From a virus: DNA of 64,000 bases. Positions 1 through 9,281 of this stretch are shown here, piece by piece (position 1 is the stretch's first letter; each line of letters opens with the position of its first letter). A model generated the notes under the pieces. That model did no database searches and was not told the DNA's origin. It was given only the letters and a program-made list of their open reading frames with translations. Where the stretch lies: the IMG/VR virus record IMGVR_UViG_3300020048_000023, positions 32,001 to 96,000 of that record; one strand, given 5' to 3'. Position numbers and translations under genes: made by a program.

Positions 1-2163
1 AATACGTCAGTCTTTCAACATTTGAAAGATACTGCGTATATTATGAACATACTATCACGCCACTTTAAGTTTAATAAGTGGGTGAGTAAAAATGGCGCAT
101 TATTGCACGACATAGGCAAATGCCACCCAGTATTTCAATCAAGGCTCAGTACACCGTATGACGGCTCCGACCTCTGGATAATACCGTTTAGACACGAAAT
201 ATCATCCATACTTTTTATCTCGTTATTTAAGCCAAAATACTGGGATATACTTATTGAACTTATTATTGGGCACCATAAATCTGTTTATCTACGGGGCGGA
301 AATGAAATAGGTAGTAACCATAAGGGGCTACTAACTTTAATAGCCAATAACCCAGACGTATTTGAACGCCACGCTGGAACGGAAGAGGAATGGAATGAGT
401 GGTCAAAAACAGCTTTATCTATACTTGGCTATCTTAAAATTAAAACTAAGCCTATTAGCTACAGCGAAGCCAGAGCCAACTATGATTACGTTGTATCGTA
501 TTGTAGAGAAATAAGGAAAACAGGTAAGGGTATATCTAAATGGCGCGGAATACTCAATGCCGCCGACCATATATCATCGCACCTTGATCTATTTAGGGAT
601 TCATTTGAATCAACTAAAAAAAGTATGTTTGTAAAGCCAGACGTTAGTGTTTATGACAAAATGGCTAATTCCTTATATCCTCTTTCGGTTATAGATATGA
701 AAAAGGAGAAAAAGCATAAGCATACACTTATTATAGCACCTACTGGGGCTGGTAAAACCCAAGCTCTTCTAAGGTGCGCAACTGGTAGAATATTTTATAT
801 TCTTCCGTTCCAAGCGGCAATTGACGCTATGTTTAGGCGTTTTAAACACGATCTAACAACAACAAACCCAAACTTGGCTATTTCTATACTTCACTCAAAA
901 TCGGTACCTATTATAGAAAGAGAGGGTACCGTAGCGGAAGCAGTACTGCGGGATAAAATTGGATGCGGACTGAAAGTAGCAACACCATACCAAATATCAA
1001 AAATACTTGTTGGGTCGTCTGGATTTGAGCAGACCATACTTGATATAAGCGGGCAGGATATAATAATGGATGAAATACACTCCTATAATAGAGAGGCTAA
1101 ATCTTTTATATTAACGCTTATTCGTGTTTTACTGCTATTTAATTGTCGTATACACTTCGGAACCGCCACACTTCCAACGGATTTAAAAAATAAGATCATT
1201 AAAATACTTGGCGGAAAAGATAACGTTGATATAATTGAATTAACGAGCGAGCAGCAAGACACATTTGATAGACATATAATTTATAAAAGAGATAGTTTTA
1301 CTGACTGTCTTCCAACTATAGACGAAGCAGTGGCTAATAAGAAAAAAATCTTGATAGTAGCTAATACTGTAGGCGTTGCCCAAAGAATATATAATGATAT
1401 ACTACAAAGGTATCCACATTATAAGTCGTCGCTACTTCACAGCCGATTCAGACGTAAAGATAGGTCTGTTAAAGAAAACGAATTGTTTGATAATAATGCT
1501 TGGAAGGACGGTGGTATTCTCGTAGCAACACAAGTGGTTGAGGTTAGCCTTGACATTAATTACGATGTATTATTTACCTATTGTGCTCCATTTGACGCAC
1601 TCATACAAAGAGGTGGTCGTATTAATAGAGATAGAAATAGACCCCCAGACCGTATTTGCCCCATATACGTAATAAAGACACGAATGAATCATACTAATCG
1701 GGGTGAAGTTATTAGAACCGAGCTTGGCGGTTATAACGAAGGTATAGTAAATGCCACGTGGAATATTTTAAAAGATGGCGAAATACTAAAAGAATCAAGC
1801 ATACAGGGGATGATTGATGCAATATACCCTAATACAGTGGATGATCAAAACCTTATCACAAACTGTATATTTGACGCAGATGGTAACTGTATTATGCAGA
1901 AGCTAACTAATCAAAAAAACGACATACTCGAACAGATATTCACCCAGTCCAATGATATCTTGATTTTGGAAAGCGACGTGGAAGAATATAGGAGAAATTA
2001 TAAATCCAGAGCCGAACTTGAAATACCAGTGTTCTATCTGTCAAGGCATATAGAGAATGTGCTTATACATAATGAGTTAGGTGAGCTAAAGAAAATGGAC
2101 TGCGGGCTCGAACCGTACATTTTACCCAATGCAAACTACAGCTTTGAACGCGGAATTATTTAA
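1..2163 (+). CDS. cas3: CRISPR-associated helicase/nuclease Cas3 (HD + SF2), 5'-truncated by the window edge
   Basis: HD motifs LLHDIGK, GHHK, AADH; helicase motifs APTGAGKT, DEIH, TAT, HSRF, ATQVVEVSLDI, QRGGRINR. The frame is open to position 1 (..FQHLKD), so the true start lies upstream. Confidence 0.95.
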   Translation, partial: NTSVFQHLKDTAYIMNILSRHFKFNKWVSKNGALLHDIGKCHPVFQSRLSTPYDGSDLWIIPFRHEISSILFISLFKPKYWDILIELIIGHHKSVYLRGGNEIGSNHKGLLTLIANNPDVFERHAGTEEEWNEWSKTALSILGYLKIKTKPISYSEARANYDYVVSYCREIRKTGKGISKWRGILNAADHISSHLDLFRDSFESTKKSMFVKPDVSVYDKMANSLYPLSVIDMKKEKKHKHTLIIAPTGAGKTQALLRCATGRIFYILPFQAAIDAMFRRFKHDLTTTNPNLAISILHSKSVPIIEREGTVAEAVLRDKIGCGLKVATPYQISKILVGSSGFEQTILDISGQDIIMDEIHSYNREAKSFILTLIRVLLLFNCRIHFGTATLPTDLKNKIIKILGGKDNVDIIELTSEQQDTFDRHIIYKRDSFTDCLPTIDEAVANKKKILIVANTVGVAQRIYNDILQRYPHYKSSLLHSRFRRKDRSVKENELFDNNAWKDGGILVATQVVEVSLDINYDVLFTYCAPFDALIQRGGRINRDRNRPPDRICPIYVIKTRMNHTNRGEVIRTELGGYNEGIVNATWNILKDGEILKESSIQGMIDAIYPNTVDDQNLITNCIFDADGNCIMQKLTNQKNDILEQIFTQSNDILILESDVEEYRRNYKSRAELEIPVFYLSRHIENVLIHNELGELKKMDCGLEPYILPNANYSFERGII

Positions 2164-2177
2164 CATCTAAAAATAAA

Positions 2178-2209
2178 TTTGGTAGATTCAAAAATTAGTT
2201 ATATATTTG
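2178..2209 (+). promoter_or_regulatory. Bacteroidota sigma70-type promoter (TTTG -33 / TAnnTTTG -7) upstream of cas8
   Basis: TTTGGTAGATTCAAAAATTAGTTATATATTTG. The same architecture recurs at about 9235, 10236, 21388, 22161, 27174, 29144, 32532, 33995, 36047, 40428, 49056, 53554, 55479, 60768 and 62458. Confidence 0.85.
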
Positions 2210-2228
2210 CCACGTTAATCCAAAACAT

Positions 2229-3566
2229 ATGGAAGCCATAAATTTAGGTAGAATACTTTTACGTCAATACAATAAGGTTAATTCAACGAATTACTCAGCA
2301 AAGGAGTTTTTTGAGAATCATTTTGAAGTGTTCCATAGCCCAAAGTCTGAAAAGAATTTTATAAGCATAACAAATAGCCCATTTCATAATAATGGTGGCA
2401 AAAAACCAAAACCATACGAAAAACGTATGGCTGAATATCTGGAAAAAATAGCGTCTGGTAATAGAACTACTTCAATAGGTCGTGATTTTCCAGCGGAAGG
2501 GGAATCACAAGCGACCAGATCACAGGTTGATATGAGAAACATAGACGCATTAACTACGGAAGATATCTATTTGGCTCAGATTGGTGATAATCTATTTGTT
2601 AACATAGAATCATATTCGGTCGGAATAGGGCACCCAGAAGTGTTGTATGAAATCTACCAAGGGTGGTTGGTATACCGAGATAAAATATTGGATAATACGT
2701 TTTACAATTACAAAGGCAACCAGTGTGATACGTGGAACGGTATATGGTTATTGGCTAATACCGAAGACCAATCAGTTGATATGACCGTAAATGATATAGT
2801 AAACAGCTATACGGCAAAGAAAAAAGATAAAAGCGGCAACGAAAAACCTATTGTTGATGAACATAAGTGTTTAAGGTTTGAATCAGTTCGCTGGCACCAA
2901 TTTTTTATTAACCTCGCGGTAAAGTATGCAGATGAATCATTTAACATTAATGTCAAATTATTTAGTGATACAAATAAAGCGTATGGTGATATTACCGTCG
3001 ACCTTAAAGACCTGCGTTACGTGTACGACTTCCTGAAATTGCATACCGAAATAACTGGTAGTAAAAGAGCGTATATTCAAAAGATATTTGAGTCTTGGGA
3101 TATAAAAAGCTTTCGGTATATACTTGAAGGAGATACCTTGGAAAAACATTGCTTTGAACCAAATAATTTTTATGATATCATTCATAATCTCAAACAAGAT
3201 AAAAAAGTTAAACAGAAAGATATAATTAATCTTAAAAACTACTACTTTATGATACTGAGTACCCCAGAAATAATAGCTACAACCGATAGACTATCAACGC
3301 AGTTAATTAATTTCGCCAAAAGTAAGGCTGGTATGAGAAATAGAATAACTGACGTTGAAAAGTTGGTTAATTCTTGGTCAGTGGCTCACTTTAGTAAGAA
3401 CTTAGCTGAAATGGCTAAAACTTATGAAGATGATTTTACAATCGATATATTGGATAATAACACTATTATACAGCTCAATAAGGACTGCTTCAATGTGTTT
3501 ATATCCCAGCTTAAACTTAAATTCTATTTATCCACCTCTAAATCAAACAAAAATGTTAAATTCTAA
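2229..3566 (+). CDS. Putative Cas8 large subunit (Bacteroidota type I-B-like)
   Basis: Lies between cas3 and cas7; the N-terminal GRILLRQYN..YSAKEFF..ITNSPF resembles Bacteroidota type I Cas8 from memory; helical C-terminus. Confidence 0.7.
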   Translation: MEAINLGRILLRQYNKVNSTNYSAKEFFENHFEVFHSPKSEKNFISITNSPFHNNGGKKPKPYEKRMAEYLEKIASGNRTTSIGRDFPAEGESQATRSQVDMRNIDALTTEDIYLAQIGDNLFVNIESYSVGIGHPEVLYEIYQGWLVYRDKILDNTFYNYKGNQCDTWNGIWLLANTEDQSVDMTVNDIVNSYTAKKKDKSGNEKPIVDEHKCLRFESVRWHQFFINLAVKYADESFNINVKLFSDTNKAYGDITVDLKDLRYVYDFLKLHTEITGSKRAYIQKIFESWDIKSFRYILEGDTLEKHCFEPNNFYDIIHNLKQDKKVKQKDIINLKNYYFMILSTPEIIATTDRLSTQLINFAKSKAGMRNRITDVEKLVNSWSVAHFSKNLAEMAKTYEDDFTIDILDNNTIIQLNKDCFNVFISQLKLKFYLSTSKSNKNVKF

Positions 3567-4692
3567 AAGATTAAGAATCAAACAGGTTATTTATTACAAT
3601 AACCCAACCCTATTTTGCGTGGGTAAAGAAGGGCAAAAACGAGTATATGATAAAACATATGGAAAATACCTTGCGTATTCGTCTGGGCAGCAACAAAAAA
3701 CTACCCGCGTAAACGAGGTGTGTGAATTGCTTGGTATACCACTTGCGGATTTTGTGTTTTACTACAATGAAAAGCACAAGCAAGCGTCAAAAGGTATTTC
3801 ACAAGACCCGAGGCACGTAGAGGCTATGACACGTGGGTATATGAATGTAACCACTAATAATATTAAACGGGAAAGTCCACTTAATATTAGTACTATGTTT
3901 CCAATACACCCATTATTGGTTGAATCCATCGATGATTTAATTGCCGTAGGTCACGGGGTAAGGGAAAAAAGTTTTACCCTTATACAGGAAAAGAAAAAGA
4001 CCAAAAAAGCTGGCGAGGATGATGATGAATCAGAAAAATCAGACGGCTCAAAGACAGAAGGTAAGTACGAAGAGGTTCCAAAAACAACCGATGAATACAA
4101 AAAATTTCTCGACGAAATGGCTGATACTCGAAAAAAAGGTATAGAACATAGTTTAGCTGGTGGTAAATTATTAACCCGTGGGGTGTTCGAAAGATATATT
4201 GAAATTGACCTAACCAGATTGTTCGCATTTAACAATGATATCTTACTTCCGAGCAAAGAGATTGCCGCTGAATATATGGACGCGATCATTAAGGACGGGT
4301 GGAAAGAAGTAGACACCAAATTGTATGGTAAAATGTTTATCGTACCAAAGTCAATACGCGATAAATATATCCCTGCAATTGCCGAAGCTCTGGTTATGGC
4401 TCTTCCAAACACTAATCAGTCCAGTTCATACTCAGTAGGCGAAATAGTTGCTACGGCGGTTAGTTATGACGCCTCGGAAAATTCATATGCAATTGTGTGC
4501 GAAGAAAATAATGAAACCGCTAATGTTATATTAGACAAGGATGCTGGTTCCAAATTATTCATCACGCCTATTGCCAAAAGTAGCAGGATATTCGCAGGGT
4601 ACGACCGTGAATCAGCTACCTCAAAGGCTAATAAAGAAGCCATTGCGTATATAACTCAGGAATTGCTAAACTTCGACTACGAGGGTATATAA
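3553..4692 (+). CDS. cas7: Cas7 backbone subunit (start re-called to ATG 3553)
   Basis: TLFCV..GQKRVYD..YSSGQQ.K, GYM..IKRESPL and GVFERYIEIDL resemble Bacteroidota type I Cas7; overlaps the cas8 stop; directly precedes the array. Confidence 0.8.
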   Translation: MLNSKRLRIKQVIYYNNPTLFCVGKEGQKRVYDKTYGKYLAYSSGQQQKTTRVNEVCELLGIPLADFVFYYNEKHKQASKGISQDPRHVEAMTRGYMNVTTNNIKRESPLNISTMFPIHPLLVESIDDLIAVGHGVREKSFTLIQEKKKTKKAGEDDDESEKSDGSKTEGKYEEVPKTTDEYKKFLDEMADTRKKGIEHSLAGGKLLTRGVFERYIEIDLTRLFAFNNDILLPSKEIAAEYMDAIIKDGWKEVDTKLYGKMFIVPKSIRDKYIPAIAEALVMALPNTNQSSSYSVGEIVATAVSYDASENSYAIVCEENNETANVILDKDAGSKLFITPIAKSSRIFAGYDRESATSKANKEAIAYITQELLNFDYEGI

Positions 4693-4710: not shown

Positions 4711-4722
4711 TGTTCTTTGACA
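4711..4722 (+). promoter_or_regulatory. boxA-like antitermination element upstream of the CRISPR array
   Basis: TGTTCTTTGACA; the same motif occurs at 6312 (before the tRNAs) and 7685 (inside the tRNA cluster). Confidence 0.6.
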
Positions 4723-4767: not shown

Positions 4768-6025
4768 ACTGTGCGTAACCCCATTCTGTAAGGAAATAAC
4801 AACATAATCGGTACATTTCTCTTAAACAATTGTACTGTGCGTAACCCCATTCTGTAAGGAAATAACAACTAACCATCGGGTTCTCCTTACCGTTCCCAAC
4901 TGTGCGTAACCCCATTCTGTAAGGAAATAGTAATACATATGCGGTTGAGTTTGCATTAGTTTTTATTGCGCATAAACCCATTCTGTAAGGAAATAATAAT
5001 CACTGACCAATTACCAGATCAGTCCAGTTAGAGTAACCCCATTCTGTAAGGAAATAACAACGAGTGATTTAAGGTGCCCGCCTCGAATACGACTGTGTGT
5101 AACCTCATTCTGTAAGGAAATAATAATTATGATAATTGAGCAGAGCCAGAGTCTTATACTGTGTGTAATCCCGTTCTGTAAGGAAATAATAAGTAGTAAA
5201 ATAAATGGCGCAATACCTTAAAAACTGCGCGTAACCCCATTCTGTAAGGAAATAATAATACACAAACGAAGGAGTAACCCATAACGTCAACTGTGTGTAA
5301 CCCTATTCTGTAAGGAAATAACAACATCGAAAAGATCAGGCAAATAGAAGCTTCAATTGTGCATAACCCAATTCTGTAAGGAAATAAAAACTTTTCGAAA
5401 GGGTTAAAGGTGTTGAACTATATGTAACCCTATTCTGTAAGGAAATAACAACTACCGACACCCTCGAACAAAGCTATTACCTACTGTGTGTAACCCTATT
5501 CTGTAAGGAAATAACAACTAATCGAAGTTGAACACATAAGCTCTAAAAACTGTGCATAACCCTATTCTGTAAGGAAATAACAACGACGGAATAATAAACC
5601 TCTGGTTGGAAAAACTGTGTGTAGCCCCATTCTGTAAGGAAATAATAATACATCGCAGGTAATCGCATTGCCAACTGTACGTAACCCTATTCTGTAAGGA
5701 AATAAAAATAGTTGTATTTGCACAGCGCCACAACCAGCAATGTGTGTAGCCCCATTCTGTAAGGAAATAACAATCAGAAACTCATTATGCTATGCTTAGC
5801 TAATATAACCTCATTCTGTAAGGAAATAAAAATAAGGAGCAATTCAAGAAGGTTGACTTAGATACGGTGCGTAACCACATTCTGTAAGGAAATAATAATA
5901 TGTACACCAGTGCAGTATCATCAGTGCACTGCGCATAACCCCATTCTGTAAGGAAATAATAATAATCAACACTTTAACCGAAAGATAAAACCATACATAA
6001 CCCTATTCTGTAAGGAAATTAAAAA
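4768..6025 (+). CRISPR. CRISPR array: 20 repeats of 36 nt (consensus ACTGTGYGTAACCCYATTCTGTAAGGAAATAAYAAY) and 19 spacers of 23-30 nt
   Basis: Repeats start at 4768, 4834, 4899, 4965, 5026, 5092, 5158, 5224, 5290, 5356, 5417, 5483, 5549, 5614, 5674, 5739, 5798, 5864, 5928 and 5990. Invariant core TTCTGTAAGGAAAT; unique spacers. Orientation is inferred from the cas genes and boxA. Confidence 0.97.
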
Positions 6026-6051
6026 TAATTTAAAGTTTTTTTCACAAAAGC

Positions 6052-6082
6052 TTGTTTTATTCAAATATTATGTCTACATTTG
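6052..6082 (+). promoter_or_regulatory. Promoter for the leader peptide / tRNA operon
   Basis: TTG..N..TACATTTG (-7 element at 6075-6082). Confidence 0.75.
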
Positions 6083-6123
6083 CAGCACTTTTTGAAACTA
6101 ACAACTATATATAAGAAAATACA

Positions 6124-6249
6124 ATGAAAAAGATCACCTACATAACCAGTTCCAATAACCTTATTCTGAAAGGAAATAACAATAGTTGTTTGGAAGCATC
6201 GTCAGAGGCGTTAGCCACTACGAATGGAATCGGTATGTACGTGAGGTAA
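6124..6249 (+). CDS. 41-aa putative attenuator leader peptide MKKITYITSSNNLILKGNNNSCLEASSEALATTNGIGMYVR
   Basis: ATG 6124 to TAA 6249, between the promoter and a terminator; contains the antiterminator strand and a run of codons matching the downstream tRNAs. Confidence 0.75.
   Translation: MKKITYITSSNNLILKGNNNSCLEASSEALATTNGIGMYVR
6148..6183 (+). repeat. Isolated degenerate CRISPR repeat inside the leader ORF
   Basis: TAACCTTATTCTGAAAGGAAATAACAAT matches about 25 of the last 28 nt of the array repeat. Confidence 0.85.
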
Positions 6250-6278
6250 AGAATTTTTGATTACCAGAGCTCGATCAG

Positions 6279-6312
6279 CCCGATTCCAAAAGAGTCGGGT
6301 TTTTTGTTTTTT
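6279..6312 (+). terminator. Intrinsic terminator (attenuator) before the tRNA cluster
   Basis: CCCGATTC-CAAAA-GAGTCGGG hairpin followed by TTTTTTGTTTTTT. Confidence 0.85.
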
Positions 6313-6340
6313 GTTCTTTGAATGTCTGGAAAAATATTGT

Positions 6341-6481
6341 GTGCGTCGTGGCGGAATTGGTATACGCGCTTGTCAGTGTACCCTACAAGGCAGGAATTGG
6401 GGAAAACAGGTGGACAACGGAAACTGCATTCCGTGGGCTTTATAGATTAAATCCGCGCTGGTTCGAGTCCAGCCGCGCACA
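6341..6481 (+). ncRNA. tRNA-like RNA with an expanded anticodon arm and a long variable region
   Basis: Leu-type D arm TGGCGGAATTGGTATACGC; T arm GCTGG-TTCGAGT-CCAGC; acceptor GTGCG(T)CG/CGCGCAC; TTGTC/GACAA stem enclosing about 38 nt. Confidence 0.65.
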
Positions 6482-6488
6482 CAAACAT

Positions 6489-6564
6489 GGGTCGTTAGCT
6501 TAGTCTGGCTTAAAGCGTCTGCCTTGCAAGCAGAAGAGCAAGGGTTCGAATCCCTTACGATCCA
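6489..6564 (+). tRNA. tRNA-Ala(TGC)
   Basis: Cloverleaf; TCTGC-CTTGCAA-GCAGA; G3:U70; no encoded CCA. Confidence 0.92.
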
Positions 6565-6593
6565 CAATACCGTCTGGAAATTCCAGACAAAAT

Positions 6594-6663
6594 GGGTCTG
6601 ATCCCGAAGGTAGGGAGCTTCACTTGCAATGAAGACATTTGGGTTCGATTCCCACAGTATCCA
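6594..6663 (+). tRNA. tRNA-Ala(TGC), atypical or possibly pseudo
   Basis: CTTCA-CTTGCAA-TGAAG anticodon arm and TGGG-TTCGATT-CCCA T arm; imperfect acceptor stem. Confidence 0.6.
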
Positions 6664-6668
6664 CAAAC

Positions 6669-6752
6669 GGTGCGTTATACAAGCGGTTCAAAGTAGGCAG
6701 CCCTTCAAGCTGTCCCTGTAAAGGTTCGTGGGTTCGAATCCCACACGCACTA
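6669..6752 (+). tRNA. tRNA-Glu(TTC)-like with C33 and a long variable arm
   Basis: Acceptor GGTGCGT/ACGCACT; GCAGC-CCTTCAA-GCTGT; variable arm CCCTGTAAAGGTTC; canonical T arm. Confidence 0.7.
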
Positions 6753-6963
6753 CACTAATAAAAATCGTCTGGAATTTCCAGACAAATTAAAAAAAGAAAG
6801 GAAATATTATGCTAAAAGCACTAAACACGAAAGGATAGAAAACCGAAAAAAAGAGATCGGAAGCCGAGAAGAAAGAAGGCGGCAAAAACACTCTAATAAG
6901 TTCATTGAAATTTTTAACTTTTTCTTACATTCATACCGCAAAGGAATACTGGATTTCTGCGGT

Positions 6964-7272
6964 ATGGAAGTAAAAGTCACGTACAACGTGAACGGTAAAG
7001 ATGGTATGGTGTCTTTCAAAGAATACGAAAACGGTGTTATGAAGCTGTATAATTTAAGCACGCGGCACCCAAATATATTGAAAGGGGTTATTATCGGTAA
7101 AAAAAGCTGGGGTCTTTGGTTACAGGAATGGACTGACGGAATATCTGAGGGGTCATTCACAACCAGAGAAATCATATCTCAGTTCGATGGTATAAAAATA
7201 CCTGAATCGCTAATGACGGACTTTTATAACGTGTTACATAAAAAAATAATGGCGCGTTCGTCTAGGGGTTAG
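6964..7272 (+). CDS. Hypothetical protein (frame open upstream; 3' end runs into tRNA-Glu)
   Basis: 102-aa ORF in a tRNA spacer. Confidence 0.5.
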   Translation: MEVKVTYNVNGKDGMVSFKEYENGVMKLYNLSTRHPNILKGVIIGKKSWGLWLQEWTDGISEGSFTTREIISQFDGIKIPESLMTDFYNVLHKKIMARSSRG

Positions 7273-7322
7273 GACGTTTGGTTTTCAGCCAAAAGACAGG
7301 GGTTCGATTCCCCTATGCGCTA
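7251..7322 (+). tRNA. tRNA-Glu(TTC)
   Basis: Cloverleaf; TTTGG-TTTTCAG-CCAAA; T arm AGGGG-TTCGATT-CCCCT. Confidence 0.92.
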
Positions 7323-7359
7323 CCTTGAATAAAATCGTCTGGATATTCCAGACAAAACT

Positions 7360-7447
7360 GGAAGATGAAACTGGCGTGGGCTGGTCGCGGTCTTGAAAAC
7401 CGAGGGGACGGGTAAAACTGTCTGGTAATCGTGCTATCCTTCTTCCG
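7360..7447 (+). tRNA. tRNA-Ser(TGA), non-canonical 8/4 fold
   Basis: GCGGT-CTTGAAA-ACCGA; 8-nt acceptor GGAAGATG/CTTCTTCC; 4-bp T stem GGTA-ATCGTGC-TATC; long variable arm; G73. Confidence 0.75.
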
Positions 7448-7499
7448 CTTAGCCGAAACAACTGCGAATATATAAATAAGCGGTTGTTTTGGACAAAAT

Positions 7500-7585
7500 G
7501 GGGCTGTGCTGTAACTGGTAGCCAAGACGGACTTAAAATCCGTTGTGCCGTAAGGCACGTGTGGGTTCGAATCCCACCAGCCCTA
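7500..7585 (+). tRNA. tRNA-Leu(TAA)
   Basis: ACGGA-CTTAAAA-TCCGT; long variable arm; canonical T arm. Confidence 0.93.
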
Positions 7586-7593
7586 CAATAATT

Positions 7594-7679
7594 GGAAGCG
7601 TGGGAGAGTGGTTTAATCCACCAACTTGGAAAGTTGGCAGCCTCGCAAGGGCTCGTAGATTCGAATTCTACCGTTTCCG
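7594..7679 (+). tRNA. tRNA-Ser(GGA)
   Basis: CCAAC-TTGGAAA-GTTGG; long variable arm; G73. Confidence 0.92.
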
Positions 7680-8363
7680 CTAATAGTTCTTTGACATTTT
7701 TATGTTAATAATATTAATAATAATTTGTAGGTATTTGTTGGCTCTATCTGGTTTAAAGTATTTCAAACCAGAAGCATCAACAATACACATTTCAATACCG
7801 CGTTCGATACACGCTTGAAATTTACGTGTATCGTTATTTTGAATTTGAGATAGTTTATCGGTTCCGTAAATGGGCTCATAATGAAATATACCATTCAATT
7901 CAAAAGCCAGTTTAAGTGACGGTATGTAAATATCCAATTCGGAGTTGATTGCGTCTTTTTTGTTGTAGTGTATTTCTAATAACGGAAATTGAATGGGTAA
8001 TTCCTGTTCCAGATAAATTTCGAGTTTTGAACGCCTGTTACCAGTTGTTTTATGCGTATTGTTATACGTAGCCGCGCAGGATTTAGTGCAGAAATCGTTT
8101 CCTTTAGTTGATTTTTGCTGCGAAAGTAGTTTACTAAAATTTTTACCGCAATTAGCACACGTGGTTTGTTTTCTGGTTCTTTCGTATACACCCCAGCATT
8201 TCATTGAGCAAAAATCACCAATATCTAATTTATTAGGATTAAAAACGTCTTGTATTCTCTTTTTAGTTAAATAAAAAGTTTTTTCACATTGTTTACATTG
8301 GCACGGAAGCTTATCATATGATTTTGCCGTACTAAATTCTAATTCGTTAAATAGCGCTTTCAT
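7680..8363 (-). CDS. Putative free-standing homing endonuclease (Zn-finger repeats + PD-(D/E)xK/Vsr-like domain) inserted antisense in the tRNA cluster
   Basis: CxxC..FCSxxC repeats; ELDIYIPSLKLAFELNGIFHY..D..K..C motif; start re-called to ATG 8363. Confidence 0.75.
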   Translation of the reverse strand: MKALFNELEFSTAKSYDKLPCQCKQCEKTFYLTKKRIQDVFNPNKLDIGDFCSMKCWGVYERTRKQTTCANCGKNFSKLLSQQKSTKGNDFCTKSCAATYNNTHKTTGNRRSKLEIYLEQELPIQFPLLEIHYNKKDAINSELDIYIPSLKLAFELNGIFHYEPIYGTDKLSQIQNNDTRKFQACIERGIEMCIVDASGLKYFKPDRANKYLQIIINIINIKMSKNY

Positions 8364-8440
8364 TAATTGTTTTATTATAAATAGTCTTTGGCGGAGCAAA
8401 ATTCGTATTTTCGAAAAATAAACTTACCGCTAAATAAATT

Positions 8441-8524
8441 GCCTTAGTGGGGGAATTGGTTATACCCAGCAGTTTCAAAAACTGCCGCGCTTAGCGCATA
8501 CAGATTCGACTTCTGTCTGAGGCA
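8441..8524 (+). tRNA. tRNA-Leu(CAA)
   Basis: GCAGT-TTCAAAA-ACTGC; long variable arm; acceptor GCCTTAG/CTGAGGC. Confidence 0.9.
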
Positions 8525-8531
8525 CATATAG

Positions 8532-8617
8532 GGAAGGTGAAACCGCCGAGGGGTGGTCGATGCCTGCTAAGCATACGGTACCCGTAAGGGTATGGGAATC
8601 GTGCTCTCCGCCTTCCG
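8532..8617 (+). tRNA. tRNA-Ser(GCT), non-canonical 8/4 fold
   Basis: GATGC-CTGCTAA-GCATA; 8-bp acceptor GGAAGGTG/CGCCTTCC; 4-bp T stem GGGA-ATCGTGC-TCTC. Confidence 0.8.
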
Positions 8618-8625
8618 CAAAAAAT

Positions 8626-8696
8626 GCCGTCTAAGTCAATTGGGTTGGCGCTGGTCTGCAAAACCAGTTTGGTGAGTCCGATTCTCACAGACGGCT
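8626..8696 (+). tRNA. tRNA-Cys(GCA)
   Basis: CTGGT-CTGCAAA-ACCAG; acceptor GCCGTCT/AGACGGC; U73. Confidence 0.88.
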
Positions 8697-8795
8697 CAAA
8701 ATTACCGTTGTAACGGTAACATTTAACAATAAAATTACCTATGGGTAGTTTTAGCTCTAATTCAGAGCTTAATGTTCGCTGTAGCTGGAAATTAC

Positions 8796-9053
8796 TTACT
8801 TTACCTGAGATAGGTAAATAGTGTTATTTGAAAGGTTGACAGTCGTATCATTGTAGGATATGAGCGATACGCGGGCTTGTTTGTTTGGTCGGTATTCAAA
8901 TTTACCGTCCATGTCTGTATATACTGTATTTCCATCCACCTTAACGGCAACGCCGCATAGTGTTTCGTGAGTTATTGCGTCTTTTACCTGATAGGTTTTA
9001 GGTGTGGAGAATAGTTGCAAGATGAATGCGAAAATAACGAATGTCTTTACCAT
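8796..9053 (-). CDS. Small secreted protein with a carboxypeptidase-regulatory-like (TonB receptor N-terminal) domain
   Basis: Hydrophobic signal peptide followed by VKDAITHETLCGVAV..TDMDGKF..VSLISY. Confidence 0.6.
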   Translation of the reverse strand: MVKTFVIFAFILQLFSTPKTYQVKDAITHETLCGVAVKVDGNTVYTDMDGKFEYRPNKQARVSLISYNDTTVNLSNNTIYLSQVK

Positions 9054-9139
9054 ACTTAATGTTTTAAAATAAGTATGAGTTGAATTAAAGAAAGTCTAAC
9101 TTACAGATTAAGTTACTGTTACCTACAGGTTAAATAATT

Positions 9140-9224
9140 GGAAGATTGACCGAGTGGAAAGGTACCCGCCTCGAAAGCGGTGGTCGGGGTAATTCCCGCG
9201 CAGTTTCGATCACTGCATCTTCCG
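9140..9224 (+). tRNA. tRNA-Ser(CGA)
   Basis: CCCGC-CTCGAAA-GCGGT; acceptor GGAAGAT/ATCTTCC; G73; long variable arm. Confidence 0.88.
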
Positions 9225-9281
9225 CAAAATTTTATTTGGTTATTACTATTTTTAGTTTTATATTTGCAAAAAAATATTTAT

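Follow-up and report, generated by a model that had tools for sequence, protein, structure and literature searches.

How a single CRISPR repeat came to lie in frame within the leader peptide of a tRNA operon, and whether Cas6b of the same phage could act on it there, is the question raised by the locus described here. The stretch of DNA analyzed (the window, 64,000 nucleotides) corresponds to bases 32001 to 96000 of a 160,910-bp IMG/VR virus record that is about 67% complete as estimated by CheckV. When the sequence of the lone repeat is placed into the context of the CRISPR array, the predicted fold of the leader RNA, and related phage loci, several explanations can be weighed against each other, leading to predictions of graded strength.

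The phage and its CRISPR-Cas system

The record derives from a large phage with promoters of the Bacteroidota type (TTTG/TAnnTTTG) and a gene content that includes RtcB, an RNA ligase, a nicotinamide phosphoribosyltransferase, and a Dda-like helicase. ARAGORN identifies 28 tRNA genes, all of which lie between 9.8 and 41.2 kb of the genome. The CRISPR-Cas system is of type I-B, with the operon order cas6b-cas5b-cas3b-cas8b-cas7b and an interference set that is complete according to PADLOC (matches to Cas6b, Cas5b, Cas3b, Cas8b, and Cas7b with E values of 1e-43 to 1e-211); Cas3 is supported by Pfam and NCBIfam matches as well. A type VI-B (Cas13b) reading of the 36 + 30 geometry of repeat and spacer was ruled out because the cas genes are those of type I-B. 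Cas6b, encoded 7 kb upstream of the lone repeat, is matched by PADLOC over its full length (E value of 1e-45) and is, from its sequence, apparently intact. Neither cas1 nor cas2 is present in the 67%-complete record.

Relatives of this system are few. A search of 5.8 billion proteins returned a single relative cluster for Cas7b, at 41% identity, with a cas gene order identical to that of the phage studied here, and no Cas7b relatives were found in IMG/VR or the phage collection. A third phage, G004, was found through its Cas6b (30% identity) and is rich in tRNA genes. Its locus (L166 12049-12900 and 12949-17858; the record behind L020) holds a cas3-to-cas6b operon and an array of 36-nt repeats and 30-nt spacers, on the minus strand.

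Table 1. Features of the locus, in window positions unless marked as L001 or genome positions
Feature	Position	Strand	Description
cas6b	L001 14734-15420		Just upstream of the window; PADLOC
cas5b	L001 15427-15981		Just upstream of the window; PADLOC
cas operon, 3' part	1-4692	+	cas3b to 2163, cas8b 2229-3566, cas7b ~3553-4692; the window opens within cas3
boxA-like motif GTTCTTTGA	4712-4720	+	Precedes the array; also found after each tRNA-leader terminator
CRISPR array	4768-6025	+	20 repeats of 36 nt, spacers of 23-30 nt
Promoter of leader cassette	6050-6083	+	TTTG-N-TAnnTTTG, Bacteroidota type; repeated family D9 (2177, 6050, 9234, 10235)
Leader ORF	6124-6249	+	41 codons
Region 1 (putative anti-antiterminator)	6134-6154	+	Predicted to pair with 6225-6244; overlaps the first 7 nt of the nominal 36-nt repeat
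Lone repeat	6148-6183	+	36 nt, codons 9-20 of the leader ORF; clear homology over 6156-6183
Sensor codon run	6184-6216	+	11 codons, solely Ser/Cys/Leu/Glu/Ala, the identities of downstream tRNAs
Region 2	6225-6244	+	Core 6225-6233 pairs perfectly with region 3 (6280-6288) by sequence
Intrinsic terminator (regions 3 and 4)	6277-6312	+	Stem 6277-6301, then T run
boxA-like motif	6313-6321	+	Directly after the terminator
tRNA cluster	6340-9225	+	139-nt tRNA-like RNA, Ala, Ala-like, Glu x2, Leu x2, Ser x2, Cys; small ORFs between
Second lone repeat	L001 9119-9154 (genome 25119-25154)		13 kb upstream of the first, 6.9 kb before the window; genome-wide scan

The CRISPR array and its conserved repeat module

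Across the array the 5' third of the repeat drifts between copies, and the 3' 21 nt are nearly invariant. This 21-nt module comprises a 4-bp stem, a GUAA loop, which is found in 20 of 20 array repeats, and an 8-nt handle, which is degenerate in the last repeat of the array (ending at 6025). The hairpin of the repeat is weak, at -1 to -3.4 kcal/mol, and a weak standalone hairpin is usual among type I-B repeats. In the array of the Cas7b relative, the 3' 22 nt of the repeat are identical to those of this phage and the 5' part is different, and in the 36-nt repeat of G004 the 4-bp stem and GUAA loop are kept by covarying bases. As it has been kept identical in the one relative and by covariation in the other, the 3' module is the selected part of the repeat, presumably recognized by Cas6b or Cas5b.

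The boxA-like motif that precedes the array, GTTCTTTGA, also stands ahead of the array of the Cas7b relative (L008 6186-6196). Because the motif precedes both arrays and degenerate repeats lie at their distal ends, the arrays are assigned as read on the plus strand; transcription from the minus strand was ruled out on the same two grounds. In both related arrays the terminal repeat lacks a handle and abuts the next promoter directly, and since the arrangement is alike in the two, the array proper can be taken to end at 6025. Among the spacers, spacer 5 (5062-5091) matches the tRNA-Ser(CGA) gene of the phage itself (9159-9175) over 17 nt with one mismatch, and from this match the array may target the tRNA genes of competitors.

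Leader cassettes and the predicted attenuator

The lone repeat lies in one of three leader cassettes in the genome (at genome positions 9637 and 15727 and window position 6124). All three have the same layout, with a promoter, a ACTATATAT(A/T)A motif, a short ORF, a terminator, a boxA-like GTTCTTTRA motif, and tRNA genes. Leader 1 contains a run of Leu, Arg, and Gln codons with one Ser, and tRNAs for Arg, Leu, and Gln follow downstream; leader 2 has many Tyr, Trp, Gly, Pro, Thr, and Asp residues and is followed by tRNAs for the same amino acids; and leader 3, which contains the lone repeat and has a promoter near-identical to that of leader cassette 2, carries its Ser/Cys/Leu/Glu/Ala run upstream of the Ala, Glu, Leu, Ser, and Cys tRNA genes. 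In the related IMG/VR phage L022, a leader of 28 residues (3849-3935) holds all 15 downstream tRNA identities and one other residue. As residues match the downstream tRNA identities in three cassettes and in L022, the leader ORFs look real, and we take the leaders as genuine on this correspondence. Apparently, the tRNA operons of this phage group have leader peptides ahead of them, with residues that correspond to the tRNAs encoded downstream. Another short leader ORF ahead of a phage tRNA cluster, again with residues that correspond to the tRNAs that follow, is found at L026 1232-1333. In L022 and L026 too, a terminator and a GTTCTTTRA motif come after the leader.

The RNA of leader 3 is strongly structured, with a z-score of -3.5. 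The duplex between regions 1 and 2 is predicted at -20.5 kcal/mol, a value equaled by none of 2,000 shuffles, and the repeat module and the sensor codons both sit in the loop between these regions, which measures 69 nt in leader 3 and about 78 nt in leader 2. The predicted fold of the nascent RNA (6090-6291) keeps the 1:2 pairing, so that region 3 is free for the terminator; when the RNA is made to start at 6176, region 2 is predicted to pair with region 3 instead, forming an antiterminator. Folding thus predicts that the leader is an attenuator with alternative antiterminator and terminator structures. In the minimum free energy (MFE) fold of the leader, the repeat module is paired as CCUU/AAGG and its handle pairs with 6185-6191, and the repeat hairpin is not formed.

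Identity of the lone repeat

The original prediction described a lone degenerate repeat about 120 nt past the array and behind a promoter of its own, and both points are borne out, with a gap of 122 nt between the array end at 6025 and the lone repeat that contains the promoter at 6050-6083. A repeat-finding search of the window places 6147-6185 in a family of 21 members. The conserved module (6163-6183) matches the array consensus at 19 of 21 positions, and the TAACC block upstream of it matches too. A resemblance of this kind was not obtained by chance: the 28-nt consensus at up to 3 mismatches had no match in 100 shuffles of the window, and neither the 21-mer (up to 2 mismatches) nor the 36-mer (up to 10 mismatches) had any match per genome in 60 first-order Markov genomes. 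On this sequence evidence, the lone copy is derived from the repeat lineage of this phage. The first 7 nt of the proposed extent (6148-6154) match the array poorly and are part of an RNA stem instead; the copy is real, and only about 6156-6183 of it is clearly repeat-derived.

The repeat had also been described as lying in frame, and it does coincide exactly with codons 9 to 20 of the leader ORF, which begins at 6124 and not at 6125. In this frame the canonical repeat reads CTG TAA, which includes a stop codon, and the lone copy reads CTG AAA. The underlying change from a GUAA to a GAAA loop is the only unique one in the conserved 21 nt, the final T being found in half of the array repeats as well, and a GAAA loop occurs in 0 of 40 array repeats. 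It removes the in-frame stop yet keeps a GNRA loop. Because the one unique change is the change that opens the frame, the sequence argues for translation of the leader ORF and for a later arrival of the repeat within it.

All invariant positions of the module are kept in the lone copy except the variable loop base, giving a possible hairpin at 6164-6175 (stem 6164-6167/6172-6175, loop GAAA) and a handle at 6176-6183. Type I-B Cas6b leaves an 8-nt 5' handle, and by this rule the cut would be placed between 6175 and 6176. The 30 nt that follow the repeat had been read as the sensor codon run and as one spacer length. They do contain 10 of the 11 sensor codons, with the run continuing to 6216; the comparison with a spacer has no structural sense, as a second repeat marking the end of such a spacer is missing. 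No further repeat was found 3' of the lone copy, where 6214-6249 matches by eye at only 7 of 36 positions.

As a separate observation, the handle region of the lone repeat can pair with the first three sensor codons (6174-6191); in the MFE fold they form a 7-bp hairpin, which could hide the handle or pause a ribosome.

A second lone repeat upstream of tRNA-Thr genes

A genome-wide scan located a second lone repeat, which overlaps the stop codon of a Ro60/TROVE gene (L001 7690-9129) with an ORF four codons longer than those of its relatives. It is followed by two terminator hairpins and then, 72 nt on, by two tRNA-Thr genes (L001 9226 and 9305); the fraction of the strand that lies within 160 nt upstream of a tRNA gene is 2.5%. 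The same GAAA loop is present, and the stem is kept through a compensatory change from U-A to C-G. Beyond these two lone copies, no decayed extra repeat copies were found in the 161 kb of the record. The arguments for selection on the lone copies, each at about p 0.05, are suggestive and weak when taken together.

Two other readings of the second copy were considered and rejected. A small ORF that starts within it cannot be a Thr sensor, as it has zero Thr codons, and a conserved 3' element of TROVE genes was ruled out because relatives have either Y-RNA-like elements or nothing at this place. Such elements are seen in phages of about 100 kb (L030, L082, L090, L034, and L040) with TROVE proteins 57 to 61% identical, where repeated Y-RNA-like stems lie directly 3' of the gene (about 7405-7540). 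In L034 and L040 these stems enclose a tRNA-like T arm, at the place where the present phage has the lone repeat instead.

Search for the repeat in relatives and databases

No repeat was found in the two other leaders of this genome or in the leader cassettes of related phages, and no lone repeats were found in the DNA examined from either related CRISPR-bearing phage, the 124 kb of G004 included. The searches returned no close relatives in which conservation of the lone repeat could be followed. A repeat-like unit was likewise missing from 1.08 Mb of related TROVE and tRNA-cluster loci; these repeat-free loci fit an expectation of "no CRISPR, no insert," with the phages too distant for the comparison to be informative for this leader.

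In IMG/VR, a 17-mer of the repeat gave only six single matches, all attributable to chance, and the 21-nt module has no exact match in bacterial species genomes, where exact matches alone were sought. A degenerate 20-mer searched in metagenomes recovered only the arrays of the Cas7b relative and RBS-like chance matches. As the GAAA form is a common RBS-like string in metagenomes, matches to the motif elsewhere mean little.

Possible functions of the lone repeat

Our tentative preference is for a Cas6b-gated attenuator, in which a solitary repeat of the phage's own type I-B system has been domesticated into the leader peptide, is probably still a Cas6b site, and switches the attenuator to read-through when cut or bound. 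As the stem, the loop class, and the 8-nt handle are intact, Cas6b may still bind the lone repeat and cut between 6175 and 6176, which would separate region 1 from region 2. Pairing of the freed region 2 with region 3 would keep the terminator from forming and let transcription proceed into the tRNA genes; a cut would favor read-through because the anti-antiterminator is detached. Alternatively, bound Cas6b could block the ribosome upstream, with the same outcome. In either case, once Cas6b is made, expression of the tRNAs would become independent of the codon sensor. That a cut could free the antiterminator was part of the original prediction, where loss of the start codon was given as the means. 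The folds of an RNA starting at 6176 agree with the freeing itself, which would come about more through the detachment of region 1 than through loss of the start codon.

In favor of this gating are the origin of the copy in the phage's own repeat lineage, its opened frame, its retention of the module that is also kept in the other two phages, the full-length Cas6b, the predicted attenuator fold, leader ORFs that look real, and the second lone copy, with its compensatory stem change and GAAA loop ahead of tRNA-Thr genes. Other considerations speak against it. The hairpin is weak and the module is paired otherwise in the MFE fold of the leader; a GAAA loop is found in no array repeat, so Cas6b may not accept the lone copy; and because only about 100 nt are transcribed before attenuation is decided, the time for a cut is short. 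Moreover, the two other leaders of this phage and those of its relatives have no repeat, and the CRISPR-bearing relatives have no lone repeats. A wider version, in which Cas6b cuts or binds at both own-type lone repeats and so gates or processes the tRNA transcripts, tying tRNA supply to CRISPR-Cas expression, we regard as doubtful.

An inert passenger is almost as likely as the Cas6b-gated attenuator. It could be supposed that an array-distal rearrangement left one repeat in the leader, where it merely supplies extra codons and where Cas6b is blind to it or cuts without consequence, and that it survived because it is 12 codons long and had lost its stop codon; as a whole, this reading has a real chance, short of an even one. 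The distance of only 122 nt to the array would suit such an origin, as would the many repeated promoter cassettes (family D9) of which the genome is full and which would be able to drive rearrangement. That other leaders manage without a repeat points the same way, and as the 69-nt loop is in the range of that of leader 2, the insert need not disturb the attenuator. The excess of 5' changes relative to the closest array repeat is not significant (p ~0.09), and the GAAA loop is missing from every array repeat. However, the recognition module is otherwise intact, and the distant second copy, which also precedes tRNAs, keeps its hairpin by compensatory change. No graveyard of decayed copies exists in the 161 kb, and the array proper stops at 6025, without trailing off into the leader. 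A resemblance by pure chance, with a purine-rich string of the GAAAGGAAATAACAA type arising independently in an AT-rich leader, would be in keeping with how common the GAAA form is in metagenomes and with its RBS-like context before an ATG, but the absence of matches in simulated genomes at this stringency, the extension of the match upstream into the TAACC block, and the adjoining array make this explanation scarcely credible.

Two further alternatives assign the repeat to a small RNA. As a decoy of the Racr kind, an abundant small RNA would sequester Cas6b, Cas7b, or Cas5b from a host, or from a competing phage with the same module. The order of promoter, repeat, and terminator (6050-6312) is as described for viral solitary repeat units (SRUs) and Racrs (PMC10651486), and the module is shared exactly with the system of another phage, yet the phage's own system would be inhibited too, the unit is translated and not non-coding, and its terminator is a regulated attenuator. 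With no exact match to the 21-nt module in any bacterial species genome, moreover, there is no known host system of this repeat type, and we consider a decoy improbable. About equally improbable is a guide-like RNA, released by Cas6b, composed of the handle and the phage's own sequence from 6184, and loaded onto Cascade, which would repress a promoter in the manner of CreR or crlRNA or attack related phages that lack the insert. Regulatory roles are known for standalone repeats and mini-arrays close to cas loci (10.1101/2023.03.03.530964), and the array seems to be aimed at tRNA-island sequence already, through spacer 5. Against this, a position-by-position check found no downstream repeat, and neither pseudo-spacer has a seed-anchored match in the 161-kb record, cas promoters included, with zero matches in IMG/VR. 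A crRNA-like regulator, as had been proposed, is therefore disfavored by the absence of a target in the record and in IMG/VR; across the spacers and pseudo-spacers together, no targets were found in the phage's own genome, the fetched related loci, GenBank phages, or IMG/VR.

Relation to known systems

Solitary repeats on mobile elements have precedents. The SRUs of viruses and plasmids include RNA anti-CRISPRs, or Racrs (Camara-Wilpert et al. 2023, PMC10651486; Faure et al. 2019, cited therein). Like these, the present unit is a single repeat on a phage, with a promoter 5', a terminator 3', and the recognition features for Cas6 retained. It differs in that the repeat matches the phage's own cas operon and not a known host system, that it lies in a translated ORF from which the stop has been removed, whereas SRUs and Racrs are non-coding and intergenic, and that it forms part of an attenuator ahead of tRNA genes, with no acr context seen. 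Within CRISPR-cas loci, standalone repeats and mini-arrays are known as crlRNA, CreR, and CreA, and isolated single units are listed too (Shmakov et al. 2023, 10.1101/2023.03.03.530964). The resemblance here consists of a degenerate repeat that adjoins a type I cas locus without belonging to the array proper; in contrast to those RNAs, there is one repeat unit, not two flanking a spacer, and the adjacent sequence has no partial match to a cas or cargo promoter.

The leader itself invites comparison with the attenuators of the trp, his, and phe operons, in which a short ORF with regulatory codons governs alternative RNA pairings. A regulatory codon run and predicted 1:2, 2:3, and 3:4 pairings before an intrinsic terminator are common to both. 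Unlike the classical cases, tRNAs are controlled in place of biosynthetic enzymes, the sensor codons name the downstream tRNAs, and a putative nuclease recognition site stands between region 1 and the sensor codons. To our knowledge, no natural Cas6 hairpin in a leader peptide has been described. In engineered systems, Cas6/Csy4 hairpins have been built into mRNAs to regulate their stability and their translation (PMC4604432; PMC13478208). There, as may be the case here, a Cas6-family hairpin lies within an mRNA and expression depends on the nuclease; those constructs are synthetic, whereas the lone repeat is natural.

The lone repeat is, in these terms, a new variation on the known theme of solitary repeats. 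On phages, solitary repeats are known to act as decoys that counter host immunity; in cas loci, standalone repeats are known to guide self-regulation. An own-type repeat kept open in frame within a leader peptide would represent a third use, a nuclease site wired into an attenuator. If Cas6b acts there, gene expression under Cas6 control, to date available solely in engineered form, would have a natural instance, and the CRISPR-Cas systems that huge phages carry would be connected with their large tRNA sets, both being hallmarks of these phages.

Additional observations

Several features of the arrays and the tRNA cluster deserve mention in their own right. The first RNA of the cluster (6340-6483), of 139 nt, is tRNA-like, with good D and T arms and a long insert that replaces the anticodon arm; neither ARAGORN nor Rfam makes a call for it. 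The boxA-like motif occurs both ahead of the CRISPR arrays and after the tRNA-leader terminators, and arrays and tRNA operons may share an antitermination system. In the array of the Cas7b relative (L008 6223-7640), the distal repeats retain nothing but the conserved 3' module and recur every 54 to 56 nt, one unit has no hairpin (6364-6386), and a 26-nt tandem duplication is found at 6595-6646. In the array leader of the present phage (4750-4782), the stretch GGGGTTACAC is complementary to the 5' part of the first repeat, GTGCGTAACCCC, and could fold back on it.
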